From NCBI GenBank assembly GCA_001724265.1, contig MEDY01000078.1, forward strand, positions 124,001 through 182,146: a stretch of 58,146 nt of DNA, read 5' to 3'. Each line of letters starts with the position of its first letter. Positions within the stretch are counted from its first letter, which is position 1. Of this stretch, positions 3,674 through 29,985 are shown in pieces. The position numbers and the translations under genes are program-made. The notes under the pieces are model-generated. The model was not told the origin of the DNA. It made no database searches and saw only the letters and a list, made by a program, of their open reading frames with translations. This DNA is from Rhizaria sp. SCN 62-66. Taxonomy: Eukaryota.

Positions 3674-3745
3674 ATTGGTTACAGTTATGACACACAGACA
3701 CTGTCGCTGATTGGTTACAGTTATGACACACAGACACTGTCGCTG
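3674..3745. repeat. Exact 36-bp tandem duplication (2 copies)
   Basis: attggttacagttatgacacacagacactgtcgctg at 3674-3709 and 3710-3745. Confidence 0.95.
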
Positions 3746-3901
3746 CTCCAGCGGTGTGTCCCATCGATGCGTGTGATTCTCAGATAAACGCAGCGGACTA
3801 CAAACAATCATATCGGAGCTGCTAGATATTTATTCAAGGTAAAACCTCAGAAAAAGGCTCAAATTCTATCTACTATATATATACCCATTTTTCCAATGCA
3901 A

Positions 3902-5317
3902 TCAATTTGAAGTGACGCCATTGTTAGACTGTAGCTGCAGAGGTGGAGGGGGCACTGTGAACCAGGGTTTTGTAACGGTAATATTATGCCGTACAAACTG
4001 GAGACGCTCAGATGCATGAAACGTTGCCACACGGTTTTTCTCATTGGAAGTCAGCGGCGGATTGGACACATAATTGCCACGTTCATTGATGTAGTCAACG
4101 TCGTGAAACACAATGTAGTCATAGGCCCACTCTGCTGCCACCCGCACGCCAATGTTGAGCAAGTAGCCCTTGTTAAACAAGAGGTCGTTATTGCCCATCT
4201 CCACCACCAGCGTCGCATAGTCGCGTCCAGGCACTTTGCCAGCGGCGCGAAGGTGCGTGTCAAGAGCCTTCGTCAGCTGCAGCATGTGCTCTGCGCGCTC
4301 GCGCTTCGCGACATGCAGGAACTCGCGGTACGGAATCAGGATGAGCATCTTGCCGCTGCGCGCCTGTGACCGCGGACTGTTGCGGTGTGCCGCGACAACA
4401 TCGGGGTGCAGCGGGGACGTCATGCTCGCCCACGCAGGCAGATCCAAATCAGCCAAAGTCAAACTGCCCTTTTGCCGCTGCAGCCATGGTGCTTTTGTGA
4501 ACTCGACAACTGCGTTCGCAAGTGCTTCGGCGGCAAGCGGTGTCAAAGATGTCGTGTGGCTCATGCTGCTACAGTAACGTATTGCGTTGCCGACGCGGGA
4601 CGATGCTTGCTGTGAGACAGGTGTCGCCTGTTCTGAAGACGGCTGGTCGGGCATCTGGAGTGGCGCAGGCGTCTCGCTCTTCACGACTGAGGGCGGCTGC
4701 TCGGGCGTCGTAAATGGCGCGGGGGCCTCACTAACCACGACCGATGGCGGGTCAACCGTCGGCTATGGGGGCGGGTCCGTGTTTGAGACATGGGTCGTGG
4801 TGTCAGAGTTGGCAACTCGAGGTGTCTCGTCAGCTCGAGGTGTCTCGATGGAGGGGCACTGGACGGGCGCGGTGGTGGGAGTTTCCAAAGTCAAGTCGGC
4901 ATTCTCTGTTGCGGGTCGCTGCTGTATGCTTGAGTCAAGCTTGCTGTCAGTCGCGCTGGTCGCGCTGCGGACCTGTGGCAGGTAGCGGCGGTGAACGGCT
5001 CGGCGGAGTCTGAGGCCGAAGTGTTCGAGCAGAGCGGCATGCTGAGCCGGGGACGCAGGAGGCTGCAAGAGATCAGAATGTCGGCCGCGGCGCTATGACT
5101 GCGTCCAGGATAACGCAATGTTGGTTGAGAACGCGTCATAATGGCTTGATGTGGGTCGCGAGTGTAGAGAAACGCTGTCTGGAATGTAAGGTCTCTCCTA
5201 GGCGGTTGGTCCTCCCCCCAGAAACCCGAATAGCATCACGACATACAGTATGAGGAAGATGCTGATAAGTGATATTCTTACCCAACTTGTATGCGATCTA
5301 TCAAAGTAGTCGGTCAT
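3902..5317 (-). CDS. Glycosyltransferase family 7 (beta-1,4-galactosyltransferase-like) type II membrane protein; three in-frame TAG codons; C-terminal half not found (possible pseudogene)
   Basis: One frame from ATG 5317 gives a signal anchor (WVRISLISIFLILYVVMLFGFLGGG), a P/S/T-rich stem, then ILIPYR, FNKGYLLNIG and YDYIVFHDVD (DxD). TAG at 5198-5200, 5093-5095 and 4763-4765; first TGA at 3902-3904. No WGxEDDD motif seen downstream. Confidence 0.65.
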
Positions 5318-5867
5318 TGGGTCTCCAGGGCTGTGATAAAACAATGAAAGGCATATCGTAATGCCGTGGTGCAAGATTCTGTGTCAACAGAGCATGATTC
5401 TCCTCAAATAACGAGCCAAATACGTTTCAAGATAGACCGGGGACATACAATGATTGTCAATAAACTATACAATGTAAGATAACATAGCAAAATAATTGTA
5501 TCACACTCAACGATATGCTTAAGCCGGGAGAGCTTTCAAATGTCATCCATATCTGGGTGGACGCATCGCAAGCGGAGACATTATTTTTTTTTGGAGGTTT
5601 TTTTTTTTTTTTTACATTGGGCTCGGCGAGTTGAACGTTCAACGAAATGCAAATATTATCACACGAGCCGAGTTGACTCAACTTGAAATTTTCAAATATA
5701 ATTTAGCAGATAGTAAATTAGGGGGCATCTCGGTCATTATTTTATTTATACCCCGATTTTACTATCTGCTATATTTGTTTACTTATAACATAACCCATCT
5801 GTCATCATTTTTCCTGACGTCTATCTTGTACTGTACATAATGTACATATCTAGTATCATGAACGGGC

Positions 5868-6612
5868 GTGCATGCAGAGCCTGGAGCGAGTCGCGATGCC
5901 ATTATTGCAAAGATTCGAGACGAGATCGACATCTTGTTCTCGACGACCACGTTTTTGTTCTGCTTGCGTCGCGCTCACATTCGCTTTGGCAAGCCAGCTG
6001 TGCATATCGACATCTCGCAGGTCAGCATCGACACCCATCTTGCCTGGGCCGTGCCTAACCTCGGGCGCGATCTCAGCAACGTTGTCTACAGCGACGAAAA
6101 GATCTTCATCGCTGGTGATCGTGATAACAAGATTTACTACGAGCTTCACCACCGCCTGCTTATCTTCGCCAACCGCTGGTTAGCCAGGATCCACATCTGG
6201 TGGGCCATTTTCAAGTGCGCGCGCCTCGAACCTTTTGTCATCAAAGGACGCCTCAACTCCGAGAGTTTCTAAGAGGTGCTTGCTAAAAGCCTGCTGTCGA
6301 GTATCCGCGACGACCAGATTTTCCAGTGAGACAACGCACCGGTCCACGTGCCTTGTTATACCCTTGAATTTCTTGCTCGGAACGACGTTCTTCTGCTCGA
6401 GGACTGGCTGGCGCAGTCCCCTGACCCTGAACCCGACTGAGCATGCCTGGGCTCAAGCGCAGAAGCTCGTTGTTGAGCGCAACCCTGCTAAAGCAGCAGA
6501 GCTTAAGGCCACTGTTCTGAACGTTCTTCGCACGTTCCCTCAGGACAGCATCAACAGGCTCATTGACAGCGTGCCAAACAGGCTGCAAAAGGTTATCGAA
6601 AAGCAGGGTCGT
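5868..6612 (+). mobile_element. Degenerate Tc1/IS630-superfamily DDE transposase remnant
   Basis: VVYSDEKIF (D1), FQ*DNAPVH (D2), SPD/LNPTEHAW (E) and the C-terminal INRLIDSVPNRLQKVIEKQG. Disrupted by TAA 6270-6272, TGA 6327-6329 and a +1 frameshift near 6426. No clear terminal inverted repeats identified. Confidence 0.85.
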
Positions 6613-7109
6613 TTTTTTTTTTGTTTAAGCGCACTATTAAAAATACATTCGCATTTTAAGACATCATACTATGTTGAGCTTACACATATAAGTTTTGATT
6701 TTTATTGACCCCTTTCTTCAACTTATGTTTAAAAAGAAACGTTCAGCGTTCAGGCAATAGCAGAGGCACGCTTGTGTCCGCCCGTGCGCGTAGTACTCAG
6801 CTGCCGCAGTGCGTCAGTCTTGCGTCTTGCGAGAGACCTCTGCACGCGCAGCCATGCGTCTTTACTACAAATGGAGTCACGTATCATTTTTACACAGACT
6901 TGAGATCAGTGCAAGACCTGCGGCAAACAACAGCTATCTGACTATCATTGCGTTGCACTATCTGATTTGGAAGTCGCGTTTGCGTTATCGTCGCATGATG
7001 TTCTTCACCATCACCGCCCAGCACTTTATCAGTTACATTATACACTGTACATTCAAGTTATAAGTTACTTGTGACGCCAGCCCATCGCTCATTCTCGAAG
7101 TTTGCGCGT

Positions 7110-9266
7110 TTAGTGCTTCTCGTACACGCGGTTGCCACTCGCAGTCTCGTAGTACACGCCGCCGCGTGGCCCGATGAAGAGCTCGCGCCCGTTGGCGGAA
7201 CCCGTGCTTACGTGCACTTGGCCAGACGGGATGCCTCCATGCGTGTTGTAGCTCGTGCCAGAGCTGTAGCCAGAGCTGGAGCTGGTGCCTGTGCTGGAGC
7301 TATAGCTGGAGCTGGAGCACGGCGTGTAGCTAGCACGGGGAGTGTAGCTCGAGCTCGAAGTACGCACTGAGGGTGCGGCGGGAGGACTGTAGCTGCGGCT
7401 GTAACTTGGTTGCGGCGCATAACTGTAGCTGTCGTTGCCGCCACCGCCGCCGCCGCCGCTGTCATCACTGTCGTAGATGATGCTCGGGTAGCTGCTGCGC
7501 TGCTGCTGCGGCTGCTTGGTTTGCTGCTGACCGCGGCTGTGCAGCTTTTTCTCTGCGTCCTTCAGGGCAGCACGCAGCTTTTCCGCGTCCGCAAGCGCCT
7601 CTTTGGCAATCGCTAGCGCCGCCGCGGCCTGCTCTTGTGCTTCTCCCGTCCCCTGCTTTGCCGTCGCGCTGCGCTTGCTCGCCGCGGCCGCGCTCTCGGC
7701 GGAGGCAATGCGCGCCCGCGAGGCAAGAGACAGCGAAGACAACGACTGCTGCATCTGCGACAGCGACGGCGCCGCCGACGCGGCGTTCTTGAGAGCCTTC
7801 GCGCGGGCCTTGGCCTTGGCCAGCTCCATGTTCTGCGCGACGTCGAGCCGGACGGCGCGTGCGTGCTTGTTGCGGCGCGCCGCCAGAGCCTAAACGATGC
7901 GCTTCGTCTCGTTCGGCTCCAGTAAGCAGCCCGACTCGACCGTGGAGTAACGGTCAGAAATCCTGAGAAATTCATGCGTAGAGCAAAAGCAGAAACAAGC
8001 TCAGGTATATAAACTGTTCAATAGCTGACTCAGCAAGTCTAGCAAATCAGCTGAACGTGTTGTTCAAGGCACGAATGCGTACCTTTTGAGGAGACCGGCG
8101 ACCTCGCTCATCGTGGGCCGCTGCTCCTGCGCGCGCGCGAAGCATCGATGCACGAGCTCCACCAGTTCTTCCGGGCAGCCGCTGCTCGGCGGCCGTCCGG
8201 GACGGCTTCGCCATAGCTTGCAGCTTTTGGCCGAGCTCGATGTCACGATGTTGTCGAGACCGACATCGGGCCTCGACACCGCGGCAGGGGCATCGGAAGT
8301 ACTCCCGCGTGTTCCACCACGAGAACTCCCTTCACGCGTTCCGGCGGACGCGGGACTCTCGTGGCGACAAATATACTCGCGCAGCATGTCCGCGTTGGGG
8401 AAGTCTTTGCCCGCAAAGGGCGTGTCGTAGGTGATGAGCTCGACGGCGACGCAGCCGAAGCCCCACGTGTCGGTCTTGTCCGAGCAAGCGTCGCCGCCGC
8501 GGAACGCCTCGGGCGCCATCCAGGCCACGGTGCCAACGGCGCTACTCTTGCGCGAGCTTGTGCGCGACACCGAGCTCGACGTCTTTGTCGCGGCGAGACC
8601 GAAGTCGCAGAGCTTAGGTGTGAGGCTGCGGTCGACGAGTACGTTGGCGGCCTTGAGGTCGCGGTGGATGACGTGCTGGCCGTGCAGGTACGCCACACCG
8701 TTCGCGATCTGGGTCAGAATCATAATGCGCGTGCCCCACGGCAACGGGGACAGCGCTATAGAGCTGGCCGTGGCAGCAGTGTTGTCTTTGCTGTCGTTGT
8801 CTTTGCCGTCTTCGTCGTCGTCGTCATCGTCGTCGCTGTCCCAGTCGCCGTTGCTGTGCTGGTTGGCGGGGTTTGTGACGGCGATGACATCGTAGAGCGA
8901 GCCCTCAAGCAACTCCATAAGGATCATGTTCTGGTTGACGGCCATGCACGCGCCCAGGGTCTTGACGACGTAGGGGTTGTTGAGACCGTAGATGAGGGAC
9001 ACCTCCTTGCAGAACTTGGTTTTGGCCGAGTCGACGAGGTAGTGGATGTTGATTGCGTGCTTGGCTGCAATACGCATAGGGCCGTTGCTAACCGCGCTCG
9101 TCGTCTTGCTGGTCTTTCCCGTCTTGATGGTGTCGTTTTCGTCGTCGGGCGCGGGGTCGAGGGTGGACTCGAAGACGACGGCGAAGCCGCCCTCGCCGAT
9201 CTGCCGCAGGTGCGTCACGCGTGTCGGGTCGATGCGCCACGGGTAGACATCCTTTGCGTGGGACAT
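7110..9266 (-). CDS. TKL-group protein kinase with a coiled coil, an S/Y-rich tract and a C-terminal PBCV-basic-adaptor-like motif; 2 exons (9266-8083, 7962-7110), one in-frame TAG
   Basis: GEGGFAVV, IAAK, HRDLKAANVL, DFG, GTVAWMAPE and DTWGFG. Intron 8082-7963 (GTACGC...TTTCTCAG) joins in frame to the 7110-7829 ORF through TAG 7890-7892. Ends GRELFIGPRGGVYYETASGNRVYEKH-TAA. The kinase domain is certain; the exon 2 join depends on TAG being read. Confidence 0.8.
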
Positions 9267-9971
9267 AAGGACTGGGGAACAAAAATAATAGATATACCTT
9301 TGTTATGCAACAAGTGCGAGGGTATAAGAGCGACAGAGAGACTTAGATCTGACTTGATGGTGAAAAAAGGGGATCGTGTTAAAAAACTTGAGCGAATCCA
9401 GAATAAAGCTGTAATATAAGTTGGATGTACTTAAAGAGAGGTAGATTTTTTTTTGTAAAACATTGAACGTATAATAATACATCACAGTTTCACATTTTTA
9501 CAGCCAATACTTATGATGTATCATGATTGAACGTGAAATTCAGCATTATTGGAATCCAAACAAATTGCTTGTCACTTGCCTTGCTTGTCACTTGCCTGAA
9601 CCTTGACATTGCCCGCACAACATGTGAGGTACAATGCAATAAGAAACCGATACGTATTTAAGACCCATCAAGATGTGTCAAGTTGATGATAGATTGATTG
9701 TCCAACAGCGCGGGGGTACGACTGCACGTGGTGACGTAGCGAATAAATTGTAGGATTGTGTATATTAGCGTAGTCAAACGTACACGTGCATCACCTAAAG
9801 ACGTACAAAACTGGGTTCACTTCAATATCATAGAAGCTTAGCATGCCGGCTACAACAACGCGATGTTACAGCCACAATCGCTTTCAGTGAGCGGAAACGC
9901 CTCTATCTGTAGCAGCAGCACTCAGTCAGAAGAGATCTGCACCGCTGCCGCTGCAGCCACTTCGGCCGCAG

Positions 9972-10946
9972 TCACGTCTCCGTCGGCGGCAGGGGCAGCC
10001 TGAAGTAGAAGACGTGCGACCCGATCTGCACGCGCGTCATGTCTGCAAGCCGCACGCTCTTGCCGCTGCCCACGCGCCGCCCGTCGACGAGGACAAATCC
10101 GCGCGGGGCGAGACACGTGCACAGCCAAGCACCGACAGCGCCGCCTGCGCTGGCGCTGGCGCTGGCATTGGCAGGGGCATTAGAAATGGCCTCACTGGTT
10201 TCCTCGCCAGTGCCAGAGCCGGCACGAGCATCAGGGTTAGAGCTCCACTAGATGCGCGCGTGCGTGGGCCAAACAACGTCGCTCACGCTCTCTGTAACAA
10301 CCTTTCCGGTCGATTTGTCCCCACGACGCGTAGGCGCAGGCTTAGTACCGCTGCTGCCGCTGCTGGCCATCGCGTCGAGAGGCAGGAAGTTCGGCAGCTG
10401 GTGCGCGCTTTTGCCTTTGCCGGTGCTGCTCGGGCCGGTCAAATTGCACACGCGGCCAATGATGATGCGAGATGCCAGCAGATACACGTCTTTGTCTTCG
10501 AAGCAGAGCCGCGCGTAAGCCGGCAGCGGCGGCAGACTCGCTGGCCGACTCCCGTCGCCGCTAAAGCTGTTGGGCAAGGACTTTGCGGGCGTCTAAACGT
10601 GGAACTCCACGAGCTCGTTGAGAAGTGTCTGCGGGATGTCTAAGTAGTACTTAGATGACGCCGCCGTGCTGTTGCGGCAGTACACTGCGCCGGTGGCGAG
10701 GGCTGCCACCCAGGCCTGGGGCAAGGTCGTGAATGTGATCGGCTGGACACTCAACGCAACAGGGCCAGTACTGGCACTTGGAGCAACTCCGGAGCTATAG
10801 CTCAGCGTTCCTGCGGTGCCAGGGACGGCGGCAGGGACAGAGGCCACATTTGATGCGACAGCTGTTGATGCAAGTGGCAAGTGTGTCGCACCAACCATTG
10901 ACGGCTGATTTGACGATGACGGAAACGCAAAGGGATCGCAAAACAT
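9972..10946 (-). CDS. FHA-domain protein (Fkh/FOXK/Fhl1-type FHA); two in-frame TAG codons
   Basis: One frame from ATG 10946 (or 10898) to TGA 9972-9974 gives AYARLCFEDKDVYLLASRIIIGR ... HARI*W ... WLCTCLAPRGFVLVDG ... VRLADMTRVQIGSHVFYFRLP. TAG at 10593-10595 and 10248-10250. The supplied ORF track splits this gene and misses the last part. Confidence 0.7.
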
Positions 10947-11725
10947 GCGGTTAATAAACGGTGCGTGTGCCGCAAGTTGGTTTGACGGATGCAGCTTAAG
11001 TGTTGCTCAGTGGGGCGCGCCAGGCAGGTTGATGCGGAAGTGGAGGTGGGTGGCTCTGCACAGACGAGGTTGGAAAAGAACGCAAAAATGAAAGTTTCAA
11101 GTAGGATTATAAAACTCAAGGATATAGAAACACATGTAAAATGTTGATTAGGAGCGTTTGACATTGATCGATGATGGTTTAAGTGGGATATCCACTTTCC
11201 ACTTTGCAGTTTGAGTTTTTGATATCTCCTCTTGCTAGGGCACGGTTCCGAAAAAAGCTCAGCAGCTGAGGGAGCACCTTCCTTGGTTAGTTTTCTTGAA
11301 GCTCCCAGTCCATGCCTCTGTCCGTTATAGGGACTAGCGTCTCAATATTAAGTACAATAAACATTAATTTGCGAGCTCATTCTTTATTACTAAAATAACT
11401 CACAGCCCTGGCTCGCAAATCCTTTCTCACCTCCACCACCACGCCCTCCAAGAAGAACTCTCTTCCTCCTTCGACGCCCGTTCGTCGTCCCGCCGTGCCT
11501 GCTCTCTGTCCAAGCGCTTGCACTCACTGCCGCACCACCACCGTGCCGCCGTTGCGCCGCCCGCGACTTTGAAGCGTCCACGCTTTTGTCCTGGCGCGAC
11601 AGCATCCGCCCCTCTCGCTTCCCGCTTGAGTACCAAGCAAGCAGGCGTCGTCAATTTGCAAGTGAGCGCCTAAGCAGTTCGCAGCTTGCACTCGCAGCCG
11701 TCGCTGTCTTTTTACTCGTTGCACA

Positions 11726-14700
11726 ATGCCATCAATTTTCTTGTTATCCTTGTCGCCTCTGTGGCGGCGCCTCGCCACCGTTTGCATCGTCTTGGTGTTG
11801 GCGTCCATGCTCGTGCTAACGCCTTTCGCCGCCGCCGACGATGACGATGAGGTCGCCACTGTCAAAATTGCCTTCACGGGCTACGTCTACGGCGGCATTA
11901 CCGAGGTTACCAGCAGCGAGTTCTGCGCCGTCAAGACCCTCGCGAGCCCCGACGCCGTGTGCGCGGGCGGCTGCGCGCGGCGCAAGACGTTTCTCGACAC
12001 CATGCGCGCCGATGGGTACCTGCTCGTCGACATCGGCACCTTCGCCTTCGGCTCGCTCTACACGACGTTGTACCGCCTCGCGCCGGGCGCGGAGTGCCTT
12101 GCGCAGACCAAGTACGACCTGCTGGCCGTCGGCGGCGCCGACTTCTATCAGGGCTACGATGACTACGTGAATCTCCTCTCAGACGTCCGGACCCGCACTG
12201 CCGAGGCCTCTAGATTCATCGTCACCCCGCTCACGATCAACCCGACGTGCGCCAAGAACAGCACGGCACCCGCGCTGGGCTCGCTAGTGTCTCGTTCGTG
12301 GGCCACGACGCTGGAGAACGGCCTCACCGTGGGCTTTCTGTCGCACATTTCACCCTATTTCGAGTCCTCGGTGCCGGACCCCTACGGCTGCCTGACCTTC
12401 CCCAAGACTATGAGCGCCGCGATAGATATCATGCGGCAGGAGATCCACTACCTGCGCTACACCAAGAACGCTAAGGTCATCGTCCTGCTGTACGAGATGA
12501 ACCGCACCGTGTCGGCGTCGATCGACACGATCCGCGAGCTCGAGCATGTCAACATCGTCCTCACGTCGCGCTTCAACCAAACCACGCCCCTGGTCGCCAC
12601 CTCGGTGTTCGGCGACAAGTTCCTCATCGCGGGTGTCACCGCGACCTACGGCACACAGATCGGCGTGGTACAGGCGCAGTTCAACGCCACCAACGGCAGC
12701 TTCCTTAACATTGACGCCGCGGACGTCGCGAAGATCTCCACCATCAACGCCGCCTCGGCCCCGCGCGAAGCCACGCTCGCGAACTACATTGACACCCACT
12801 ACAACATCAGCGCCGACCCTAATTTCTCCCGCAAGGTCGCTGCGAGCATCCGCACGATCGATGGCCGCGACGGCCTGCTCATGTCCCCCGACGCGTGGGG
12901 CTGCCGCACCGCCGCGTGCCCTATGGGGAGACTCCTCGTCACCGCCTTCGCGTCATATTGCAAGCCCGTGCCGGCGGACGACCCTTGTATCGTGTTCGTT
13001 AACGGCGGCAGCATCCGCGGCAACTTCACGCGGCCAGACACTCTCAACGCCACCACGCCGTTCGACATCAAGATGTTCGACTCATACCGCGTCTCGCCCT
13101 TCGCCAACACGCTCGCGCAGGCCACGGTGACCGGCACCGCGCTGCTGCAGGCGCTGGCCAACTCGATCTCGCTGGCGCCCCAACAGGGCGGGCGCTTCAT
13201 GCAGTCCAACATGCGCGTCATCTTCAACCCGTATATTCGCTCCGACATCCCCGCGACCAACTTCGCCACGCGCGTGCTGAGCGCCGAGGTGCCGGTCCCG
13301 GATCCCGACGGGCTGGGGACCTGGAACGGCGCGCCCGTGACGTGGACGCAAATTAATCCGGCCAAAAACTACACTGTTATGACTCTCAAGTACCTCCTGG
13401 ACGGCTCTGATGGCTACACGTCGCTCGTCGACAACGTGCCGGCCGAGGGCAGCACTGAGATCTCGACTATTGACGCGTTCGCGGGCTACTTAGAGTCGCT
13501 CTCGGCGCCCTTAGACTATCCGACGTACGAGGAGATGGGCAGCTGTCTCACGGTCAACACCCCGCTGTCGCCGTCGTCGTCGTGCATGAACGTCTACGTC
13601 AACAAAACCTACAACGAGTACAACCGGTGCGTCACCAACGAGCCCTTTTGTGCCGCCAACGCCGGCTCCATCCTCTTCTCCGCGATGTATGTCGACCCGG
13701 ACCAGTGCGCCCAGTGCTCCGGGCTCGGCACGTGCTCCAAGGAACGCGTGTGCACGTGTTCCGGCCGCCACATCGTCACCGTCGACTCCCCTACCGGCGA
13801 CGGCAGCGTCGTCGACGTCACTTACGCCTTCGACAGCGGCCGCCCGCTGACGGGCCCCTGGAGGGGCATCGAGATGCTGCGCGGCGCCGACTGCTCCGAG
13901 ACGCGCGCGCTGCAGCTCCTGTCCGACGGCGACAGAGCCGCGCTCTACGTCGCCGCCGCGCTCGCGTTCTTGGTGTCGATCGCGTGGGCGGGGGTGCTGT
14001 TTTACTACCGCAACGAGGCCGTGGTGCGCGCGTCGTCGCCCTACTTCGGCATGCTCATGTGCGTTGGCGGGCTACTTGTCGCAACGTCCATCACCCTCGA
14101 CGCCACCAAGAATAAGACCACTGACAGCTGCAACGGCTCCGTGTGGCTGCTGGTGCTGGGCTATAGCCTCATCTTCGCCTGTGTGTTTGTCAAGACGCAC
14201 CGCATCCACGCCATCTTCAACGCCAAGATCCTCAAGGGCCGCATGTCTTACACGGACGCGTACGTGTTGCTCTACGTCGGCATCATTACCGCGGTCAACG
14301 TCATCGTGCTGATCCTCTTCCGCGCCACGGCGCCGCTGCGCGCGAACCTCTTCGCCGTTAAGGGCAGCTTCACTATCGCACAGCGCTGCTCTTCGGACGA
14401 GATCGCCTTCACGGCTGTCCTGCTCGTGTACAACGGGCTGCTGCTCGCCTGGGGCATCTACCTCGCAGTGCGCACGCGTAACGTCGACTCCAACTTCAAC
14501 GAGTCCAAGTACATCGGCGCGGCCGTGTACAACTGCGCTCTGGTGGCGCTTGTGTCCTTGCTCTTCGCGTACGCCGTCGCGCTGACCCAGCCCAACGTCG
14601 CCACCGTCGTCCGCGGCTGGCTGCTCGCATACGTCGTCATCTTTACGCTCACCGTGCTGTTTGCACCGCGTCTGCAGCTGTTTTTTCACGGCGTCCGCGA

Positions 14701-15558
14701 GTCCCAGGCGGCACGCACGCAGGCCAGCGACCTCGAGCGCCAGGTATGTTCTGTTCTCTCCTTACTAACCCTTCAGCAGCATATTTTGCCACGATATATC
14801 GACTTTAGTTGCTACTTTGTTTGTATTTTCTTATCACACTCATCTTTAACTTGACTATATTGCTCACCATTTCTTCCCTCCCTTTTACTACTTTCTTTCG
14901 CGCTTAGGCCGTGCGTGACAAGCGCGTGCTGCAGGCGATGGTGGCCAAGATGCGCGAGCACGACGAGCAGGTGCAGGAGCGCAACGACGTGATCGCGCTC
15001 CTAGTCAAGGCCTGCGCGCAGAGCGACATCTCCCCGCCCCCGCACGCGGTGAAGCTCGCCAGCGAGGGCGTCGCGCCCGCGCAGGACGCCGTGGTGATCA
15101 CCACCAACGACCCCGGCGCCGAGGGCGGCAGCCTCATCATGGGCGGCGTCAACGGAGGCGGCGGCGGCGGCGGCGCGCCGCGGGCATTGCCGATGCGCCG
15201 CGACCGCGACCGCGTGGGCGGCCGGCAAAACAACAGCAACAACAACAGCGGCATCTTCAATGCGTCCAACAACAACAACAAGCACGGCGCCGCGGTGCCT
15301 CTGAGCCCGATTGCGGCCAACGTAGTTGCGGGCGTGGCTACGGGCGCGGCTGCGGGCGCGCCTGCTGCTGCTGGCGACGGGCCCCGACAGACGGGCGCGC
15401 GCGGCAGTGGGATTCACCGGCCGCAGTTCGCCAACATGGGCAACAGCATGCTCAGCCTGCGGCACACCAACAGCGGCGACTTGGACCACACGAATAACGC
15501 CAGTATGACTGACGCGGGGGTTAGCGCGAATGATATTGAGCTCACGCGCTTCAATTAA
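11726..15558 (+). CDS. Class C (GABA-B-like) 7TM receptor with a pseudo-5'-nucleotidase ectodomain and Cys-rich/EGF-like linker, paralog 1; exons 11726-14743 and 14908-15558
   Basis: Signal peptide; nucleotidase-fold motifs NGGSIRG, PFAN, GGRF and YLLDGSDGY; CSGLGTC..CTC; 7TM hallmarks VVRASSP, KTHRIHAIF and RNVDSNFNESKYIG..VYN. Intron GTATGT...CTTAG keeps the frame; ends TAA. Confidence 0.88.
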
Positions 15559-16885
15559 GCAAGCCGTCGTGAGCAACTTCACTTTGATTTGATATTTGTC
15601 GATTCACATTGAAGATGTGTGTATAATCCATGTGTTTTTTCTGCTTTGTGTAAGCGTTGACTCATGATGTGTCGCGTTTGTGTTGTAATGTAACTGTTTG
15701 GGCCTCTCTGCTTTTGTTGCGACTTTGTTGTTGGTGTTGTCTGGTCTGTTTCGAGGGCAACTGTTATCGTTCAGTGTCTTCACTTTCGTTCTCTTAACTA
15801 TCTATGGACAGCAAAACAATGGTTTTGCGGTTCTTCTGTCTCCTTTTTCCTGTCCGTCGTTGAGGTTAGTGCCCTTTGTGTTTGTGCTGTGCGTACGCTT
15901 ACGAATGTTTTGTGTTTAATTACAAAGCGAGTTGCAGCGGAGCCTCCGTCTCGTATATCGGACCCGTGACGGGGGTGTATCGATCCTTATGTCATTTTCT
16001 TCTCTTATTTTATTCTTTTCTTGACTCTGGCTCATGCAGTTCGCTCGTTCAGACTGCTGTGAACTGTTTTTATGAATGTTGTCTGACTTAGACAGTGTAA
16101 CGGCGCTACCAGAACCAGGGATATCGTTGATTTAGTTGGTTTTTCCTAGTATAAAAAAACCTCTTATAACATTAAAAGCACGGATTTATAACTATACTCA
16201 AAGACCAGGTCTTAAAGTGACCCCCACTATGCGTTTATGGTTGACTACGCTGATTTGGGGCGGAAACGAACTGGCGCACGGTCACGTCGCCTCGAAAGGC
16301 CAAGTGACTGTGGGTCAGCGTTTTTGAAGGGACGAGCGAGATCAAATATAGACGCTGCATACCCTATGTCACCGTTGTTCGAATGCATAAAGTATTGCTC
16401 TAGCTGCTTTACGAGCTGACAATAACCGCACAATTGTCGCTTTTTCGAGGCAAAATCGTGACAACGCACACATCCGATCGTATGCTTCTCAATATGGCGT
16501 ATGCTCCGAAGGAGCAATCTCTCCAGTCGGGCTTCGTCACAGCTCCGGCCCGCAAACGCCAAAGTGCAGTGTTTTTATATTTTCGCAAACTAACGACGAT
16601 TATAATAATGGTTTGAAGATTCTGTCTCTACTGACGCTTGTTGTGCTGCTTCACAGTCTGTTCCGGTCTTCTGCCCGCCACTCGCACTCGCGCCAGCGGC
16701 TCACTCGTCGCTCCCGCCCCGACCCGGCCCTCACGTTCTCCCGTTTCCTCTTCCCTTTCCTCCTCAACCTGTCTCTCCTCACTTCTACTTACACAGAGCG
16801 TCACTTCGGTGTAGTTGCCATTGATTTCCCCCACCCCATCTCAATTGTCCGCAACAACTCCCTCTGCACACCAGTGACCGCCCCG

Positions 16886-19800
16886 ATGGTTCTCATCTCC
16901 GGGTCCGGGGTTTCCCCCCGCTGGCCCTCGGCGGCCACCACCACAGCAGCCGCCGCAGTCGCGACGCCTGCGCAGACCGCGCGCGTGTCTGTGCGCTCCC
17001 TGCTCGCCGCGCTCGCACTGGTCCTCTTTTGCATCCTGAGCGCCGCCCCTGTCGCTGTTTTCGCTGCCGACGAAGTGACGACGCTCAACATCGTCTTCAC
17101 GGGCTACGTCCACGGCGGCGTCACCAGCATCGACCCCGCCACGGGCGAGTTTTGCATTGCGCGCGGCATGAATGACACAGCGGCCAGCAGTACCTGTCAG
17201 GGTGGCGGCGACCGCCGCAAGGGCTACTTCGACTCACAGCGCGAGCTCTATCCCGACACCGTCGTCGTCGACCTCGGCAACTACTTCTGGGGCTCTGTGT
17301 TCTACACTATGTACGGCTCCGCGCCCTCGGTGGCGTGCTTCCAGCGCTCCGACTACGACATCGCAGCCATTGGCGGCAGCGACATGTACACGAGCTACGA
17401 GGACTACGCCAGCATCGTCAAGAACATGTCTGTGTACACGCAGTTCATCGCCACCAACGTTGACTTTGACAACGATCCGGAGAACGACCTCGGCAACAAC
17501 ATTGTCGCCAAGTCCTTCATCAAGACGCTCTCGTCCGGCGTCAAGGTCGGCTTTGTGTCGCCTGTCTCGCCCTACTACAATACCACGATTTCGCTGCCCA
17601 AGCCCGGTTTCATGACCATCAACCCCAACGCGACGGCGGCGAACCACCTGCGGCAGGAGATTTCCCGTCTCCGCGCCTCTGGCGTCACCGTCATTGTGCT
17701 CATGATGGAGTTCACCCGCGACTTCGACACGGAGCTGTCGCTGGCCAAGGAGCTCGAGTTCGTCGACATCGTGCTCTCATGCCGCGGCGGCGATATCGCG
17801 AACAAGAACAAGTCGATCGAGACGAACGACTACGGTCAGCCCTTTTTGTACATGACCGTGGGCGACTCGTGGGGATTGTACGTCGGAAGCGTCGTCGCTG
17901 AGCTCAACTCAACCACGGGGCTGTTCGTCAACAAGACTAAAGCATTGGAGGACTCGAAGCTCAAGCTCATTAACGCCGCCGTTACGCCCGACGCGGACAT
18001 TCGCAGCACTATTACGACCCAATTTGACCTCAGCAAGAACGAGAACTTCATCCGCGAAATCGGCACGACTGACAAGCCGATCGAGTTCCTCAAGGCGAGC
18101 TGCCGCACGCTCTCGTGCCCCGTCGGTCAGCTCGTCGTCGACGCCATGGCCAGCTACTGCAACATCACCTCGACCGACAACCCGTGCGTGGTGCTGCTCA
18201 ACGCTGGCTCACTGCGCGCCCCCGTCGGCTCCGGCACGGGCCCCAACATCACCGTGCGCGCCGCGAACGCGTACCAAGTGCTGCCTTTCTTCAACTCGTT
18301 GCTGAGAATGCGCATCAAGGGCAGTGTGCTGCTCGATGTGCTTGCCAACTCCATCTCCAAGTACTCGGCCGTCGACGGCCGCTTCCTGCAGACCAACATG
18401 CGCGTCATCTTCAACCCGTTCTCGAACCCCAGCATCATGGACTATGCAAGCCGCATCATGGAGGCGCTGGTCAAGTTCCCCAACGGCGAGTGGACGGCTA
18501 TCAACTCGGACGCCTACTACCCCATCATCACCTCGACTTACATGTCCGACGGCGGCGACGGATACACGATGCTCAAGGGCGCCGATCCTGACATGGCCGA
18601 GCTTAAGATGACGTTCGCCGATGCGCTTGTGAACTACATCGACAAGTTTACCCAGGGTCTTCTCACGACTTCTGCCTCCGCGGCCTCCTTCGCCGACGCC
18701 CCCGGCTTCATGCCCACCGACGCGTCTGGCTACTCGCCCTACGCCATGGCCCGCAAGTTCGTCGGCTACAGCAGCCCTCGCAACGCCGACGCCAACGCCG
18801 ACGCCGGCGAGGTGACCACCGCCGCCGTCTCGCACCCCCTCGTGTACCCGACGCTGGCCGAGTGCAACGCGTGCAACTACACTGAGACCCCCCTGCCGGT
18901 CGAGTCGACGTGCTTTAACGCCATCGTCAACAAGACGCTCGCCGAGTACCACCGCTGCAATACGGATCAGGATTTCTGCGACGCCTACGCCGGCTCGATC
19001 CTTTTTTCCTCGTTCTTCGTCGACGGGTCAACGTGCGACCAGTGCTCTGGCGTCGGCCGCTGCGAGGACCGCAAGTGCGTGTGCTCGGGCTCACATTCGG
19101 TCACCGTGCCCGACGGCGCGGGCGGCAACACAACCGTCACGTACAACTTGGTCGACGGCGCGCCCACGGCGGGCGTGTGGGAGGGCATCGTGCTCGTGCA
19201 GGGCACGCTATGCTCCGAGATCCGCACCGTGTGGTCCTTCTCCGAGGGCGACAAGGTGGCCATGTACGTCCCCGCCGCGCTGTCGTATCTCTTCTCGCTC
19301 GTCTGGTTCATCGTGCTGTTTGTGAACCGCAATGAGGCCGTGGTGCGCGCGTCATCCCCGCTCTTCGGCATGCTCATGTGCGTCGGCGGCTTTGTCGGCG
19401 GCACCTCGATCATCATGGATGCCAACGCAACCTCGACCGACACGTGCAACGCGTCCATCTGGCTGCTGGTGCTCGGCTACAGCCTGCTCTTCGCGTGCCT
19501 CTTCGTCAAGACGCACCGCATCCACGCCATCTTCAACGCCAAGCGCCTCAAGGGCCGCCTCGTGTACACGGACGCGATCGTGCTCACGTACGCCAGCGTG
19601 CTTACGGCGATCAACGTTATCGTGCTCATCGTCTTCCGCATTATCTCCCCGCTGGAGCTCAAACCATTCGTGATGGAGGACGACTTTGCGCTCGGCGAGC
19701 GCTGCTCGTCCAGCAGCATCATCTTCACCATCATCCTCTTTGTCTACAACGGCCTGCTGCTGGCGTGGGGCATCTACCTCGCCGCGCGCACCCGCAACGT

Positions 19801-20827
19801 CGACTCCAACTTCAACGAGTCCAAGTACATCGGCGCGGCCGTGTACAACTGCGCCTTCTCCGCGCTGGTGCTTATGCTCGTCATGTACGTCATGTCCACC
19901 ACGGAGCCCTCGATCGCGTACATCATCAAGTCGTGGCTCGTTTTCTACATCATCGCCGCCACGCTCTCGGTGCTCTTTGCGCCGCGCGTGTTGCTCGTGT
20001 ACCGCGGCATCCGCCAGGCGTCTGTCGAGGCCACCGCGCGCAGCACCACGGGCGGGCAGAGCGAGCTGGAGAAGCAGAGCGCGCGCGACCGCCGCACGAT
20101 CCAGACACTCGTGCAGCGCATGAAGGAGCACACGACCGAGCGCGACAACGCCATCTCGGTCCTCGTCAAGCTGCTGGAGGAGAACAACATCCAGGCGCCC
20201 GCGTTCAACTTCGCACAGGCCAGTCCCGAGGTCGAGCCAATCACCATCGCCGGCAGCAACAGCACTGCTGCGGGCGCTGGCGGCGAGGGCGGGCTGCAGG
20301 CGTCTCCGTCTATGGCCGCGGGCGCGGGCGTCGGCTCTGCACTGGCCTCCCAGCAGGGCGGCGCCGCGGGCTCCAACAGCCGACTAACAACGCAAACCAG
20401 CGGGCTCACGGGCGGCACTGTGCGGCGCCCGATGTTCGCGAACCAGCAGCGCTACAGCTCGCGGCCCGGCACTCCCGGCGGCGGCTCGCGCCAGTCGATC
20501 ACCTCGGCGTCGACCTCCGCGCCCGCCGCCGCCGCCGCGACGGCCGCGCACAACAAGAACAACCCCACCTACAACCTGTACGCCCAGTCGCAGCACCCGC
20601 AGGGCGAGGCCCCTGCGACCCCGACGTCTGATCTCGCGCCCAACGGCATGCAGCCCTCGTCCAGCGGCGTCGGTGCCGCGGCGCCGGGAACCGCGGGCGG
20701 GATGCGCGTCCCGACGTTCAGCCTCCCGTCGACGCCGTCCTCGGCGGTGAACATCCACGGCGACGTCGAGTCCGGCGCGGGCGCGGGCGTCGGCGCCGGC
20801 GATGTTGAGCTGCAGCCGATGCACTAA
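16886..20827 (+). CDS. Class C (GABA-B-like) 7TM receptor with a pseudo-5'-nucleotidase ectodomain, paralog 2 (intronless)
   Basis: Colinear with paralog 1: FTGYVHGG, NAGSLRA, PFFN, GRF, YMSDGGDGY, CSGVGRC, VVRASSP, RNVDSNFNESKYIG. First in-frame ATG at 16886 is followed by a hydrophobic signal; ends TAA. Confidence 0.88.
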   Translation: MVLISGSGVSPRWPSAATTTAAAAVATPAQTARVSVRSLLAALALVLFCILSAAPVAVFAADEVTTLNIVFTGYVHGGVTSIDPATGEFCIARGMNDTAASSTCQGGGDRRKGYFDSQRELYPDTVVVDLGNYFWGSVFYTMYGSAPSVACFQRSDYDIAAIGGSDMYTSYEDYASIVKNMSVYTQFIATNVDFDNDPENDLGNNIVAKSFIKTLSSGVKVGFVSPVSPYYNTTISLPKPGFMTINPNATAANHLRQEISRLRASGVTVIVLMMEFTRDFDTELSLAKELEFVDIVLSCRGGDIANKNKSIETNDYGQPFLYMTVGDSWGLYVGSVVAELNSTTGLFVNKTKALEDSKLKLINAAVTPDADIRSTITTQFDLSKNENFIREIGTTDKPIEFLKASCRTLSCPVGQLVVDAMASYCNITSTDNPCVVLLNAGSLRAPVGSGTGPNITVRAANAYQVLPFFNSLLRMRIKGSVLLDVLANSISKYSAVDGRFLQTNMRVIFNPFSNPSIMDYASRIMEALVKFPNGEWTAINSDAYYPIITSTYMSDGGDGYTMLKGADPDMAELKMTFADALVNYIDKFTQGLLTTSASAASFADAPGFMPTDASGYSPYAMARKFVGYSSPRNADANADAGEVTTAAVSHPLVYPTLAECNACNYTETPLPVESTCFNAIVNKTLAEYHRCNTDQDFCDAYAGSILFSSFFVDGSTCDQCSGVGRCEDRKCVCSGSHSVTVPDGAGGNTTVTYNLVDGAPTAGVWEGIVLVQGTLCSEIRTVWSFSEGDKVAMYVPAALSYLFSLVWFIVLFVNRNEAVVRASSPLFGMLMCVGGFVGGTSIIMDANATSTDTCNASIWLLVLGYSLLFACLFVKTHRIHAIFNAKRLKGRLVYTDAIVLTYASVLTAINVIVLIVFRIISPLELKPFVMEDDFALGERCSSSSIIFTIILFVYNGLLLAWGIYLAARTRNVDSNFNESKYIGAAVYNCAFSALVLMLVMYVMSTTEPSIAYIIKSWLVFYIIAATLSVLFAPRVLLVYRGIRQASVEATARSTTGGQSELEKQSARDRRTIQTLVQRMKEHTTERDNAISVLVKLLEENNIQAPAFNFAQASPEVEPITIAGSNSTAAGAGGEGGLQASPSMAAGAGVGSALASQQGGAAGSNSRLTTQTSGLTGGTVRRPMFANQQRYSSRPGTPGGGSRQSITSASTSAPAAAAATAAHNKNNPTYNLYAQSQHPQGEAPATPTSDLAPNGMQPSSSGVGAAAPGTAGGMRVPTFSLPSTPSSAVNIHGDVESGAGAGVGAGDVELQPMH

Positions 20828-22634
20828 GAGCCAAGCGAAGCGTCGCAGCCGCTGCGGCGGCGCAAGCTGATAAACTACGCTGCGATCGGTTCAGTGTGAT
20901 CGTGCTGTGTGCTGTACGCTATGTCGTGTTGTGGTCTAAGTACATTTCGTCCAAGTGTCTGTCCGGCAAGTATGTATCTCGGTAAAGGTGAAGACGCCTC
21001 ACTTGAGATACCAGTGGTGTTTCTCCATCATGAGGACTCTTGTCCTGTCAGTAGATACGATCACACAAGGATGCTTTGACGACTCATTGCCAACTCAAGC
21101 ATGTACTACTGAATGCTGTGTTGTTGCTATTCTGTGTACTGTTCCGGACTGTATTGTCCGTAATCTGTGCAAAATTGTATGTCTGTACCCTCTTCTCATC
21201 TCCTCCGTCTTTGTCATCGTTTGTTTTCTTTTTTCATCCAAGTGTTTTTTTCTTTAGTTCTTCTTATTAGGAAATCTAGAAATTGTGTTTTGCTTTGTTT
21301 CTTTTTCTTCGATATAACCTCCGTCATCCTCTAATCGTCCACTCATCGTCTCTCTTCATTCTTCTCAGTCGTTCAAACCTTTCCCATAATACCCATTCCT
21401 ACACTCGTTCGTTGATTCATTCAACGCGACTTCCCTATTCCTTCCTTTAATCGCAATTATAACTCCCATCATAATTCGTTGCAGTAGTCGCAACAGCCGA
21501 TATTATTCCTTTTTTTAAAAATACCAACACGAAAGGGCGTGTACTTAGGAGTTGCATCCGTCGTAGATAGAGTCAGTATAGCTGTCACAATAAGAACCAA
21601 TCTCGAGATATATCTGCACGCGTTTGTATATCATGCTCATGTTTTTGCAGTGTTTCTGATACTCCTTATGGCTGAGCTTATTATGACTAAGATTGACTTT
21701 TATTCTATTGCAACAACACACGTACACATTATTCTTTGACTCGGGCGATGTCTCGATCTTCATCTATATCTCACGGCATATCATCACATACACGCCGGTA
21801 CCTACACTCATCGATATGCCTTCGATACGGACGATCGTAAGTCCGAGTACCCAAGCGCAACCTACCCACGTTTGTGTGCGGAGGTGCGTGGCTTGTGGCA
21901 AGTGTGCGTGTCTGCCTGTATGCGTTGAGAAAGAGAGGGACATTGCCGCTCGTCACGTGCACTGTTTGCGATGTGCATCCTTCACCGCTACCGTCAACGC
22001 CTCGCTCGTTTTCTTGTTTTGTTTTGTTTCCGTTTTGGTTCTTTTTGTGTCTGTTTTGATTGCTAGTGCACCTATGTTTGTTGTTTTTTAAGTTCTCGAG
22101 TCGTACAGTACGTGTCTACGTGGCGTGTTTCAGCGCGGGAATTGGTTGATTAGCGTGAGTCGTTTACTGGAGTGCAAAGTACATGATTGAATCACGAATG
22201 TTTCTGATGCTTCCATTCATGCTTTGCTCTCGTTGCTGTCACAATCACATTATACTCACTTGCCGCTGGTTCCGACTGCTTTTTCACTGGTGTAACGATG
22301 AAACAATTGCATGATGCACTGAGCTTAGTGTTCTGTTTTATCTCAGCTAATCAGTAATATATAAACGTGTACATACACAGATTTGTTTGCATATCGATCA
22401 TAAGCATATACGTGCACACGGATCCGTAGCTTCATTACACATTTCGTCATGATACACGCGCAACCTGTCCGTGGACACAAATGTGGACATAAATGCAGTG
22501 CTGTATTGCGAATGAAATACATTCAACATCTAATAGTATCTAAAATCAACGTCGCATTAACGATTGCTTATTTCTAATTTATCTAAATCAACGTAGTATT
22601 CGTATCAGTCGAAGCATGCGACTTTTTTTCTCCC

Positions 22635-23884
22635 TTAGTGTTCGACGGAGCGCATGGCCTCAGAGACGTCGAGCGAGTCGGACAGCATAGCGTCCCGCTG
22701 CTCCTTGGTCATGAACATCTTCCCGTCCGGCTTGCGGCCGAACGTGACGCGTCCCTTGCGGTCACGCCGCTCCACCACGACGCGCTGCGTGCGCATGGCG
22801 TCGAGGTTGCCGAGGAAGCCGCGCAGGTCGTCCTCCTCCTCGCCCGCCGCGGCTGACATCCACTGCGCGTGCGTCTGCTGCAGCGCCGCTGCCTGCGTCA
22901 GCAGCCGCGCGAGCGTCTTCTGCACTACAATCACATCGCTCGTGACGGGCACCGGCACCGCGTAGCTGTTGGTGTTGCCGTGCGCGGCCGAAGCGGCGGC
23001 GACGACGGCGGCAAGCGCGATGCGGCGGATCACGTGCAGCTTGGCCCACACGGGCACGAACGAGATGAGCGCCAGGTCGCCGCGCACCAGCGGCGGCAGA
23101 GACGCCAGCACGCCCCCGGGGCACTCGCCGGCGTCGCCAACGCCGCCAGCGCCGCAGTTGAGGCCGCCGCCGCTGTAGCCGTCGCCGGCGCCCGCGATGC
23201 CCCCGCCCGCCGCGCCGCCTCCGCCACCGCCGCTGTTGATGCTGTGGTGGCCGTCGCTGCTGGCGGTGTGGAGCGCCGGGCTGGGACTGCCGCCGGTGCT
23301 CTTCTTCCCGCCGCCGGGGCGGCTACTTACATCGTCTAAGGGGCGTCCGGACTCGAGCGAAATGCCGAGGATCTCCGCATAGAGCACGCGCAGCCGCGAC
23401 GGCGGGCGGTCCGCAGCGCGCGCGGTGTCGCTCTCATGGCGCATCGCGATGGTGTTGTTGGCGTCGCTGCTGAGCTCGGACAGCAGCGTCGCCGCACTTA
23501 CGCCCGCCGACAGCGGCGTCAACAGGCCCAGCGACGCGCAGAAGGCGTACAGCGGCCGCGCGAGCGAGCCGATCCTGGGCGAGACAGGCACAGGCGCAGG
23601 CGCAGGCGCTGAGGAGGCAATCCCACCGCTGCCGCCGCCGCTACACCCACTGGCGCTGGCCTGGGGCAGCGGGACGGTAGCGGGCGCGCGCTGCTGCTGC
23701 TGGAACAGCGCCTGCGCGGTGATGGCGAGCCCGAACTCGGCGTTGATCGCCGCAAGCACCTCGCCCAGTGCGCGCGGGCGCGAGAGCAGCGCGGCAGCGA
23801 CGGCTGCGCCCCGCTGCTGCAGCGGCCGCTCCCAGGCCGTGCCGGCGGCGGCGCCGACGACCACTGGCGTGCTGCCGCTGCAGC

Positions 23885-23920
<36 letters not shown>

Positions 23921-29435: not shown

Positions 29436-29985
29436 CGAGGGCAGAGTGCCGCGCGTGGGGACGCGAGGGAGGGCCAGCGGGTGGTGCCGAGATAGACGGG
29501 AAAAGCTTCAAACTTAGGGCGAGTTCAACGGGCCCTGGGAGATTTCTGAAGAGCTGTAAAACAAATGTTAAATAAACAGCAGACTGGTTAGTTACAAACA
29601 GATATCTATTTGCAAAAATTACTACGACAGGTCGAGATATCACACTTGGCGTAAGAACCGTTTCGTTCACTTCTTCTCTTATCGGTTGCTGGTCGCGATT
29701 TTTGCGAACAGGCCTTTGGGTTGCCGCCAGCCGCGACACCGACTGGCCGACGGCTGTCTCTGCGTGATGTTCACAGCATGGAACTGGAGTCTCTGGCCGT
29801 TGCCTCGCAGCATCACAGATACCACAGACTATTTTAGTGACAAATATACCGTTTAGATTTGCGACATTTCTTTCACGCCTTGTTTCCCCTCACGCCAGCT
29901 TGCCACCGACGACCCTCATCTCACTCACACTTCTCCCCCAACCGCCCCACTCTGTGCCCGCCATCCTTATCACCACCATCGCAGT

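Follow-up and report, generated by a model that had tools for sequence, protein, structure and literature searches.

In-frame UAG codons in three neighbouring genes of an uncultured GC-rich eukaryote: candidate sense decoding of UAG beside UAA and UGA stops

The stretch of DNA considered here comprises 58,146 nucleotides (nt) of contig MEDY01000078.1 (positions 124,001 to 182,146 of the forward strand; assembly GCA_001724265.1, Rhizaria sp. SCN 62-66) and is referred to, at its full length, as the window. It carries six in-frame TAG codons in three neighbouring minus-strand genes: a copy of a GT7-type glycosyltransferase gene, a protein kinase gene and an orphan gene. The case that UAG is decoded in the source organism is, in our judgement, evenly balanced, with glutamine favoured by a single CAG/TAG difference between two strains and by precedent. 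A code with UAG as a sense codon had been proposed from a sequence-only reading; the TAGs proved to be real, no gene ends in TAG and three of the six are kept in a second strain (X4), but a genome-wide change was not demonstrated and the TAGs lie at one locus. In the mechanism proposed, UAG would not be a working terminator in the source organism; a tRNA with anticodon CUA would read it and most likely insert glutamine, and UAA and UGA would terminate translation. UAG would be a rare codon, confined in the window to three neighbouring and weakly constrained genes (the truncated GT7 copy, the linker of the kinase and the orphan). We infer the translation of the TAGs, the residue inserted, the tRNA or release-factor basis and the validity of the code across the genome.

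Six in-frame TAG codons at one locus

The six TAGs that the sequence-only reading had reported were all found in frame on the minus strand, in the following features (the exons of the kinase are given further below):

3902..5317, minus strand: GT7-type glycosyltransferase copy; ATG at 5317-5315, transmembrane-like anchor, P/S/T-rich stalk, stop TGA at 3902-3904
5198-5200, minus strand: first TAG of the GT7 copy, codon 40, between GGGPTA and ERPY
5093-5095, minus strand: second TAG of the GT7 copy, codon 75, between WTQS and RRGR
4763-4765, minus strand: third TAG of the GT7 copy, codon 185, between DPPP and PTVD; CAG in strain X4
7890-7892, minus strand: TAG in exon 2 of the kinase, between ETKRIV and ALAARR
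9972..10946, minus strand: orphan open reading frame (ORF); in-frame TAGs at 10593-10595 and 10248-10250, stop TGA at 9972-9974
10593-10595, minus strand: TAG of the orphan ORF, between EFHV and TPAKS
10248-10250, minus strand: TAG of the orphan ORF, between THARI and WSSN

TAG is also the sole interruption of the three genes, as had been claimed, since their 1,472 codons hold no TAA, TGA or frameshift. With TAA and TGA taken as the only stops, the frames of the GT7 copy, the kinase and the orphan extend over 493, 296 and 344 codons respectively, and each is the top-scoring of the six frames. An assembly error is unlikely because the six TAGs are reproduced in independent contigs. The Logan contigs of runs X2 and X3, which are apparently one data set filed twice, cover all six with no differences, and a separately assembled metagenome contig of 1,668 nt (L001), the only match in a metagenome scan with the orphan protein, is identical to the window over 9379-11046.

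Frames broken by TAG alone also occur on the antisense strand of GC-rich genes (12148-13821, minus strand, 558 codons with 15 TAGs; 18967-21027, minus strand, 687 codons without TAA or TGA and with 9 TAGs). TAG-only frames in GC-rich genomes can therefore mimic the signal of TAG recoding, and the argument depends on a frame-specific coding signal. Around 7890 and 10593 this signal is strong; it is only moderate at 10248 and falls to near zero at the three GT7 sites. Past TAGs 7890 and 10593 it carries on without a change of frame, and at 10248 the same is seen less clearly. When the genes are divided into segments of 30 codons, the true frame wins 6 of 15 segments in the GT7 copy and 5 of 10 in the orphan; for the other genes the figure is 310 of 354. 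A strict test, by which the frame has to be the best of six over 30 codons, is passed by TAG 7890 alone among the six, and also by the TAG of an intron acceptor (14905) and by two dubious sites; it is neither sensitive nor specific. Searches for protein homologues found no orthologue covering any of the six TAG sites.

Gene ends and codon usage

Termini were modelled for 15 genes, a small sample, of which 12 lie outside the TAG locus. None of the 15 ends in TAG, as the sequence-only reading had held, and the remaining ends divide into 7 TAA and 8 TGA rather than the 8 TAA and 7 TGA first counted. If TAG made up 20% of stops, a complete absence of TAG ends would be expected with P = 0.035 across all 15 genes and P = 0.07 when only the 12 outside the locus are counted. 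Codon usage was compared between the three TAG genes (1,472 codons, with 43 CAG, 6 CAA and 6 TAG) and eleven other genes of the window, whose 10,772 codons (312 CAG, 67 CAA) were confirmed to contain no TAG.

The proposal had named a local CAG>TAG hypermutation as its alternative, and no signature of such a process appeared in the indices of repeat-induced point mutation (RIP), in third codon positions or in the usage of CAA and TTG. The RIP-type dinucleotide index (TpA/ApT, CpA) is unremarkable. At the third positions of the GT7 copy A and T rise together, T not being in excess over A, and the third-position make-up of the orphan gene is that of a TAG-free eIF4G-like gene of the window. Deamination of the CHG type would raise CAA as much as TAG; since CAA is not in excess, there is no signature of this type either.

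The kinase gene

The kinase gene is modelled as two exons:

8083..9266, minus strand: protein kinase exon 1; ATG at 9266; Pfam PK_Tyr_Ser-Thr (1.4e-41) and Pkinase (3.9e-39)
7963..8082, minus strand: kinase intron, 120 nt, in phase, donor GTACGC, T-rich tract then CAG; modelled from sequence
7110..7962, minus strand: kinase exon 2; 23-codon linker, TAG at 7890-7892, coiled-coil or low-complexity tail, stop TAA

Past TAG 7890, exon 2 continues as a tail of 259 codons with normal codon bias. Before the TAG the coding score is +0.27 and after it +0.52, the frame being the best of six on either side. The 23 codons preceding the TAG score as coding (+0.46), and the 19 codons from the TAG to the first ATG of the tail have about 90% GC at third positions, unlike any intergenic spacer in the window. 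The codon bias of exon 1, linker and tail equals that of intact genes. In the kinase part, where this was examined, the donor GTACGC at 8082 has no acceptor with a T-rich tract that would join the kinase to the tail frame without TAG 7890; the only route under the standard code that keeps the whole tail in frame uses one of two non-consensus donors (GTGCCT at 8072 or GTCGCC at 8102) with a purine-rich acceptor at 7890. The end of the tail (7110-7200, minus strand) reads ...GRELFIGPRGGVYYETASGNRVY and weakly resembles PBCV_basic_adap, a basic adaptor domain specific to PBCV, with a sub-threshold E = 0.062.

The orphan gene and the transposase remnant

The coding score of the orphan ORF is +0.26 to +0.56 over 10766-10512, a stretch that spans TAG 10593, and +0.1 to +0.35 around 10248. 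The next in-frame ATG is found about 75 codons past TAG 10593, and the stretch up to that ATG scores as coding. The name FHA gene given to this ORF by the sequence-only reading (FHA domain family, Pfam PF00498) found no support in any search: no Pfam family matches at E <= 10, the matches in PDB are chance ones (E about 0.8), and the resemblance is one seen by eye. The AlphaFold model from the single sequence has a predicted local distance difference test (pLDDT) score of 34 and no usable fold, and cluster look-ups gave single-member clusters only.

A transposon also lies inside the locus:

5862..6708, plus strand: degenerate Tc1/mariner-like transposase remnant in two frames; motifs recognisable by eye

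Its earlier description as a dead transposase holds insofar as the remnant is degenerate and in two frames; its family is suggested by eye and by one sub-threshold Pfam match, HTH_Tnp_Tc3_2 (E = 0.042).

The GT7-type copy

The GT7 copy matches Pfam Glyco_transf_7N (E = 8.3e-9, region about 4082-4408), and its coding signal is strong only in 4417-4028. Its one relative is a paralogue (P0027) that is 59% identical over 117 amino acids, the similarity ending at ...HDVDYINE just past the DVD motif; unlike the copy, P0027 extends on into Glyco_transf_7C. No 7C sequence was seen by eye 3' of the copy, nor did any turn up when three long ORFs on the antisense strand of the neighbouring gene were tested. 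Because the similarity to P0027 stops before 7C and no 7C was seen downstream, the copy is regarded as truncated, and the 3' truncation suspected from the sequence is borne out, the 7C half being missing here and kept in P0027. At about 3700-3790, read on the minus strand, a direct duplication of about 36 nt is present in the AT-rich spacer that directly follows the copy, and it may be a mark of the rearrangement that took away the 3' half of the gene.

Strain comparison and RNA contigs

Two further data sets come from one study, different from that of the runs above: X4, a strain of 2025, and X5, a polyA RNA. Their differences from the window were considered as the best 40 of 263, apparently those best supported, and the X4 lists were taken as complete for the contig 10092-10563 and, for the contig 4472-5557, up to 5296, as judged from depths. 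Among these best 40 of 263 differences none falls on TAGs 5198, 5093 and 10248, which would thus be unchanged in X4, whereas X4 has CAG at 4763 (4765 A>G on the plus strand). This TAG/CAG pair suggests glutamine rather than leucine as the meaning of UAG, at one site among 18 non-synonymous differences. Of the two residues that the sequence-only reading had allowed, glutamine is therefore the one favoured, by the CAG of X4 and by precedent, and leucine is left without a pointer.

Over 4472-5296, X4 differs from the window by 31 substitutions, 13 of them synonymous and 18 non-synonymous (codon positions 11:6:14), and the only indel listed in the GT7 frame is one net insertion of 9 nt, in frame. 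In the TAG-interrupted GT7 stretch (4763-5317) 14 of 555 nt differ, and in the adjoining non-coding DNA (5318-5557) about 23 of 240 nt differ among the differences listed, with seven listed indels (deletions of 2, 1, 5, 6 and 3 nt, insertions of 5 and 3 nt) that show no triplet pattern. This is moderate evidence, from one strain pair and with AT-rich spacers being indel-prone, that the GT7 frame upstream of and between the TAGs is more coding-like than its flank. The divergence of X4 from the window has a sharp step, from 3-5% over 4472-9771 to <1% over 10567-18217; it is possibly a haplotype or recombination boundary that partly coincides with the TAG-bearing locus.

Contigs of the polyA RNA span TAG 5093 (about 5007-5163) and TAG 10248 (10093-10363), in a type of library that can carry DNA. 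X5 contigs also cover the kinase and its tail, and the bins without X5 coverage are four, three of them intergenic.

Introns as an explanation

Another explanation is that two in-phase introns, 5281-5198 (84 nt) and 8072-7890 (183 nt), each end in one of the TAGs, which would then be absent from the mRNA, the other four having a separate cause; we consider this improbable. Both candidates (GTAAGA...TAG and GTGCCT...TAG) start with GT and are multiples of three in length. In addition, two modelled introns end in TAG before a G (14907 and 52268), and their TAGs (14905 and 52266) read in frame within frames delimited by TAA and TGA. Five introns served for comparison:

52114-52268, 34764-34850, 38297- (one end given), 50019- (one end given) and 7963-8082: modelled introns (sequence models)

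The five have a tight donor GTAYG (GTACGT in three of them, GTACGC in one and GTATGG in another), each acceptor is preceded by a T-rich tract, and the apparent stops of long ORFs at 38322, 50035, 52273, 14852 and 8064 are found within introns. In the 30 nt upstream of the acceptors of the five modelled introns the fraction of T is 0.43-0.60 and that of pyrimidine 0.70-0.87, compared to 0.13-0.33 and 0.40-0.63 in the 30 nt upstream of the six TAGs. Since the six TAGs lack a T-rich tract, splicing is unlikely. The same contrast holds for the two candidate acceptors (T = 0.20 at 5198 and 0.17 at 7890), and the donors GTGCCT and GTAAGA are unlike the GTAYG of the modelled introns. Moreover, the coding score of the 23 codons preceding TAG 7890 argues against an intron there, and the 84-nt segment 5281-5198 encodes a well-placed membrane anchor. 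At 5093, 4763, 10593 and 10248 the in-phase GT...TAG segments found by eye are at most 39 nt long or have a poor donor, and a candidate intron of 58 nt at 10593 is out of phase.

Source organism and other genes of the window

The source of the window is an uncultured, GC-rich, intron-poor and flagellated eukaryote of bioreactors and wastewater, and DNA near-identical to the window was found in bioreactor and wastewater metagenome runs of several years. The window consists of long GC-rich ORFs, with GC at third codon positions (GC3) of 0.77-0.87, and AT-rich spacers in between. By Pfam its genes include IFT144/WDR19, an eIF4G-like gene, GTPases, a RhoGEF, a RING-WWE protein and two receptors in which 5_nucleotid_C is fused to 7tm_3. 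In a protein search the best non-self relative of the IFT144 protein is 32% identical, its best relatives falling at 27-32%; the database places the organism's IFT144 gene on a 104-kb contig. A search of genome contigs and viral contigs with the neighbouring receptor protein gave no match.

The receptor genes at 11666-15558 and 16391-20827 (both plus strand) are paralogous and combine a 5'-nucleotidase C-terminal domain (E = 1.6e-14 and 4.2e-21) with a class-C 7tm_3 domain (E about 1e-42). In the first of them, beyond an intron that ends in TTAG before a G at 14907, the exon terminates with TAA at 15556. An ORF of 2,290 codons at 22635-29507 (minus strand) has strong codon bias (GC3 0.87) and matches no Pfam family at E <= 0.01.

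Comparison with known UAG codes

The fornicate Iotanema spirale reads UAG as glutamine and keeps UAA and UGA as stops, an assignment that was made from many conserved genes and a likelihood test (PMC5304391). The window resembles it in that only UAG occurs in frame, UAA and UGA are the terminators and glutamine is the likeliest residue, here by one TAG/CAG strain difference. It differs in its evidence, since a single locus supplies all six sites, the three genes concerned are not conserved and the 10,772 codons of other genes hold no TAG, and in a lineage that is GC-rich and flagellated, has long contigs and lacks a close relative (best IFT144 match 32%).

In the rhizarian exLh, UAG stands for leucine; the same report counts 71 genes that together hold 384 in-frame UAGs, for the most part at conserved leucine positions, and termini of 56 UAA, 15 UGA and 0 UAG (PMC5304391). 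The likeness to the window lies in UAG as a sense codon with UAA and UGA as stops, and the use of UAG in exLh also depends strongly on gene class. Several phyllopharyngean ciliates are described as reading UAG as leucine or glutamine, with UAA as the preferred stop and with predicted suppressor tRNAs (PMC11687900). They are like the present case in that UAG alone is reassigned and in that the data are environmental or metagenomic. Phyllopharyngean ciliates have AT-rich, gene-sized chromosomes, whereas the window is GC-rich, belongs to a contig of at least 58 kb and contains spliceosomal introns. A GC-rich non-ciliate eukaryote of wastewater with UAG reassignment was not found in the literature on UAG reassignment, in searches that were not aimed at excluding one.

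Weighing the explanations

If the standard code is kept, the TAGs can be seen as ordinary nonsense mutations of a decaying locus, older than the split of the strains: the GT7 copy would be a pseudogene cut short, the orphan would be either spurious or in the course of being lost, and the kinase would have been deprived of its tail. We rate this account, the main rival, as rather unlikely. The predominance of TAG would follow from the GC-rich codon usage, which makes TAG the commonest stop reachable in one step; with random nonsense mutation of the 1,472 codons, TAG is expected at 56-66% of hits, and six TAGs out of six hits have P = 0.03-0.08. The GT7 copy without its 7C half, the weak frame wins in the copy and in the orphan, the degenerate transposon, the confinement of the six TAGs to 6 kb and the higher divergence of X4 over much of the locus all fit decay, and the single nonsense-type difference among the 31 inter-strain substitutions is close to the neutral expectation of 31 x 0.028 = 0.9. 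However, nonsense changes make up 2.8% of substitutions, so that six of them should be accompanied by some 200 substitutions and, in all probability, by numerous indels; in spite of this the three genes show no frameshift, TAA or TGA, and by coding score their frame is constant. The in-frame indel of the GT7 frame next to seven irregular ones in the non-coding flank speaks against decay as well, as do the polyA-RNA contigs over the locus, the absence of TAG ends in the 12 genes outside it and the lack of a C>T hypermutation signature. Loss of domain or codon bias is seen in the GT7 copy (no 7C, weak bias); the kinase and its tail show none, with a bias as strong as in intact genes from exon 1 to the tail, and the orphan is intermediate. 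The standard code could also be combined with restorative RNA editing of UAG to UGG, or with leaky or programmed readthrough, in a subset of genes, which we hold to be a poor prospect. In filamentous ascomycetes such as Fusarium, A-to-I editing restores premature UAG to UGG (PMC10776026, PMC4817773, PMC11156358), and reportedly there is a subset of genes, famously including a kinase, in which editing to tryptophan at the sexual stage yields the full-length protein, in ascomycetes only (PMC10776026, PMC4817773). The window shares with the pattern so described a subset of genes, including a kinase, in which UAG alone is in frame, and editing or readthrough would account both for TAG in some genes only and for its conservation. 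However, the source organism is no filamentous ascomycete, having IFT144 with best relatives 27-32% identical; the strain variant at 4763 is CAG and not TGG; and no RNA-DNA difference at 5093 or 10248 is found among the best 40 of 263 differences. As to readthrough, the earlier observation that the six TAGs share no 3' readthrough context stood, none of them matching readthrough motifs such as CARYYA, and three leaky stops in series would leave almost no full-length product. Both processes leave the absence of TAG among the 15 termini unexplained.

The reading of UAG as a sense codon explains why other lesions are lacking, why the kinase tail has an intact codon bias, why divergence has preserved the frame and why genes elsewhere have no TAG termini. 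Against it stand the following observations. In-frame TAG is not widespread: the six occur in three adjacent genes and none in the eleven others, a clustering that gives p = 3e-6 in Fisher's test of three genes against eleven, and the contiguity of three among 15 genes has a chance of P about 0.03. The TAG-free genes include the weakly biased eIF4G-like gene of 1,120 codons. Sense decoding must accordingly make UAG very rare and clustered; its density is far lower than that given for exLh, and nothing points to leucine. ARAGORN, run on the window only, found no tRNA genes. The three TAGs of the GT7 copy fall within its anchor and stalk, a part that shows scarcely any codon bias, and Pfam detects no Glyco_transf_7C, leaving the gene with one of the two family halves, so that it looks like a decaying copy. 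For the orphan, no homologues were found in 5.8 billion word-indexed proteins, and a HMMER search of 1.84 billion representatives returned its own TAG-split fragments (P0028 and P0029) and a spurious repeat match (P0030). The comparison with X4 informs four of the six TAGs, without 7890 and 10593; the kept state of 5093 and 5198 in that strain is deduced from the best 40 of 263 differences, and the letters of X5 at the TAGs are not among the best 40 of 263.

Sense decoding of UAG may be at an early stage, that of codon capture, in which UAG is gone from gene ends, is decoded (as glutamine) and is only starting to re-enter coding sequence; this is a tentative proposal, possible but on the doubtful side. 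Neutral CAG>TAG changes would then appear in the least constrained and fastest-diverging genes, and with re-entry restricted to these, the conserved genes would still be without UAG.

Significance

Nuclear codes that separate UAG from UAA are known from few lineages, namely Iotanema, a single rhizarian and certain phyllopharyngean ciliates. Standard gene callers already split the genes of this locus at their TAGs, and the orphan gene is present in the database solely as its two fragments. If UAG is truly a sense codon here, the change would be of independent origin, and its bearer would be a eukaryote outside the ciliates, GC-rich and found repeatedly in wastewater reactors. If, in addition, UAG is truly very sparse, the organism would offer a view of the early phase of a reassignment, in which the codon-capture and ambiguous-intermediate models predict differently. 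Early codon capture, if it is true, would represent a naturally occurring intermediate step in the reassignment of a stop codon, here in an uncultured eukaryote lineage that branches deeply.

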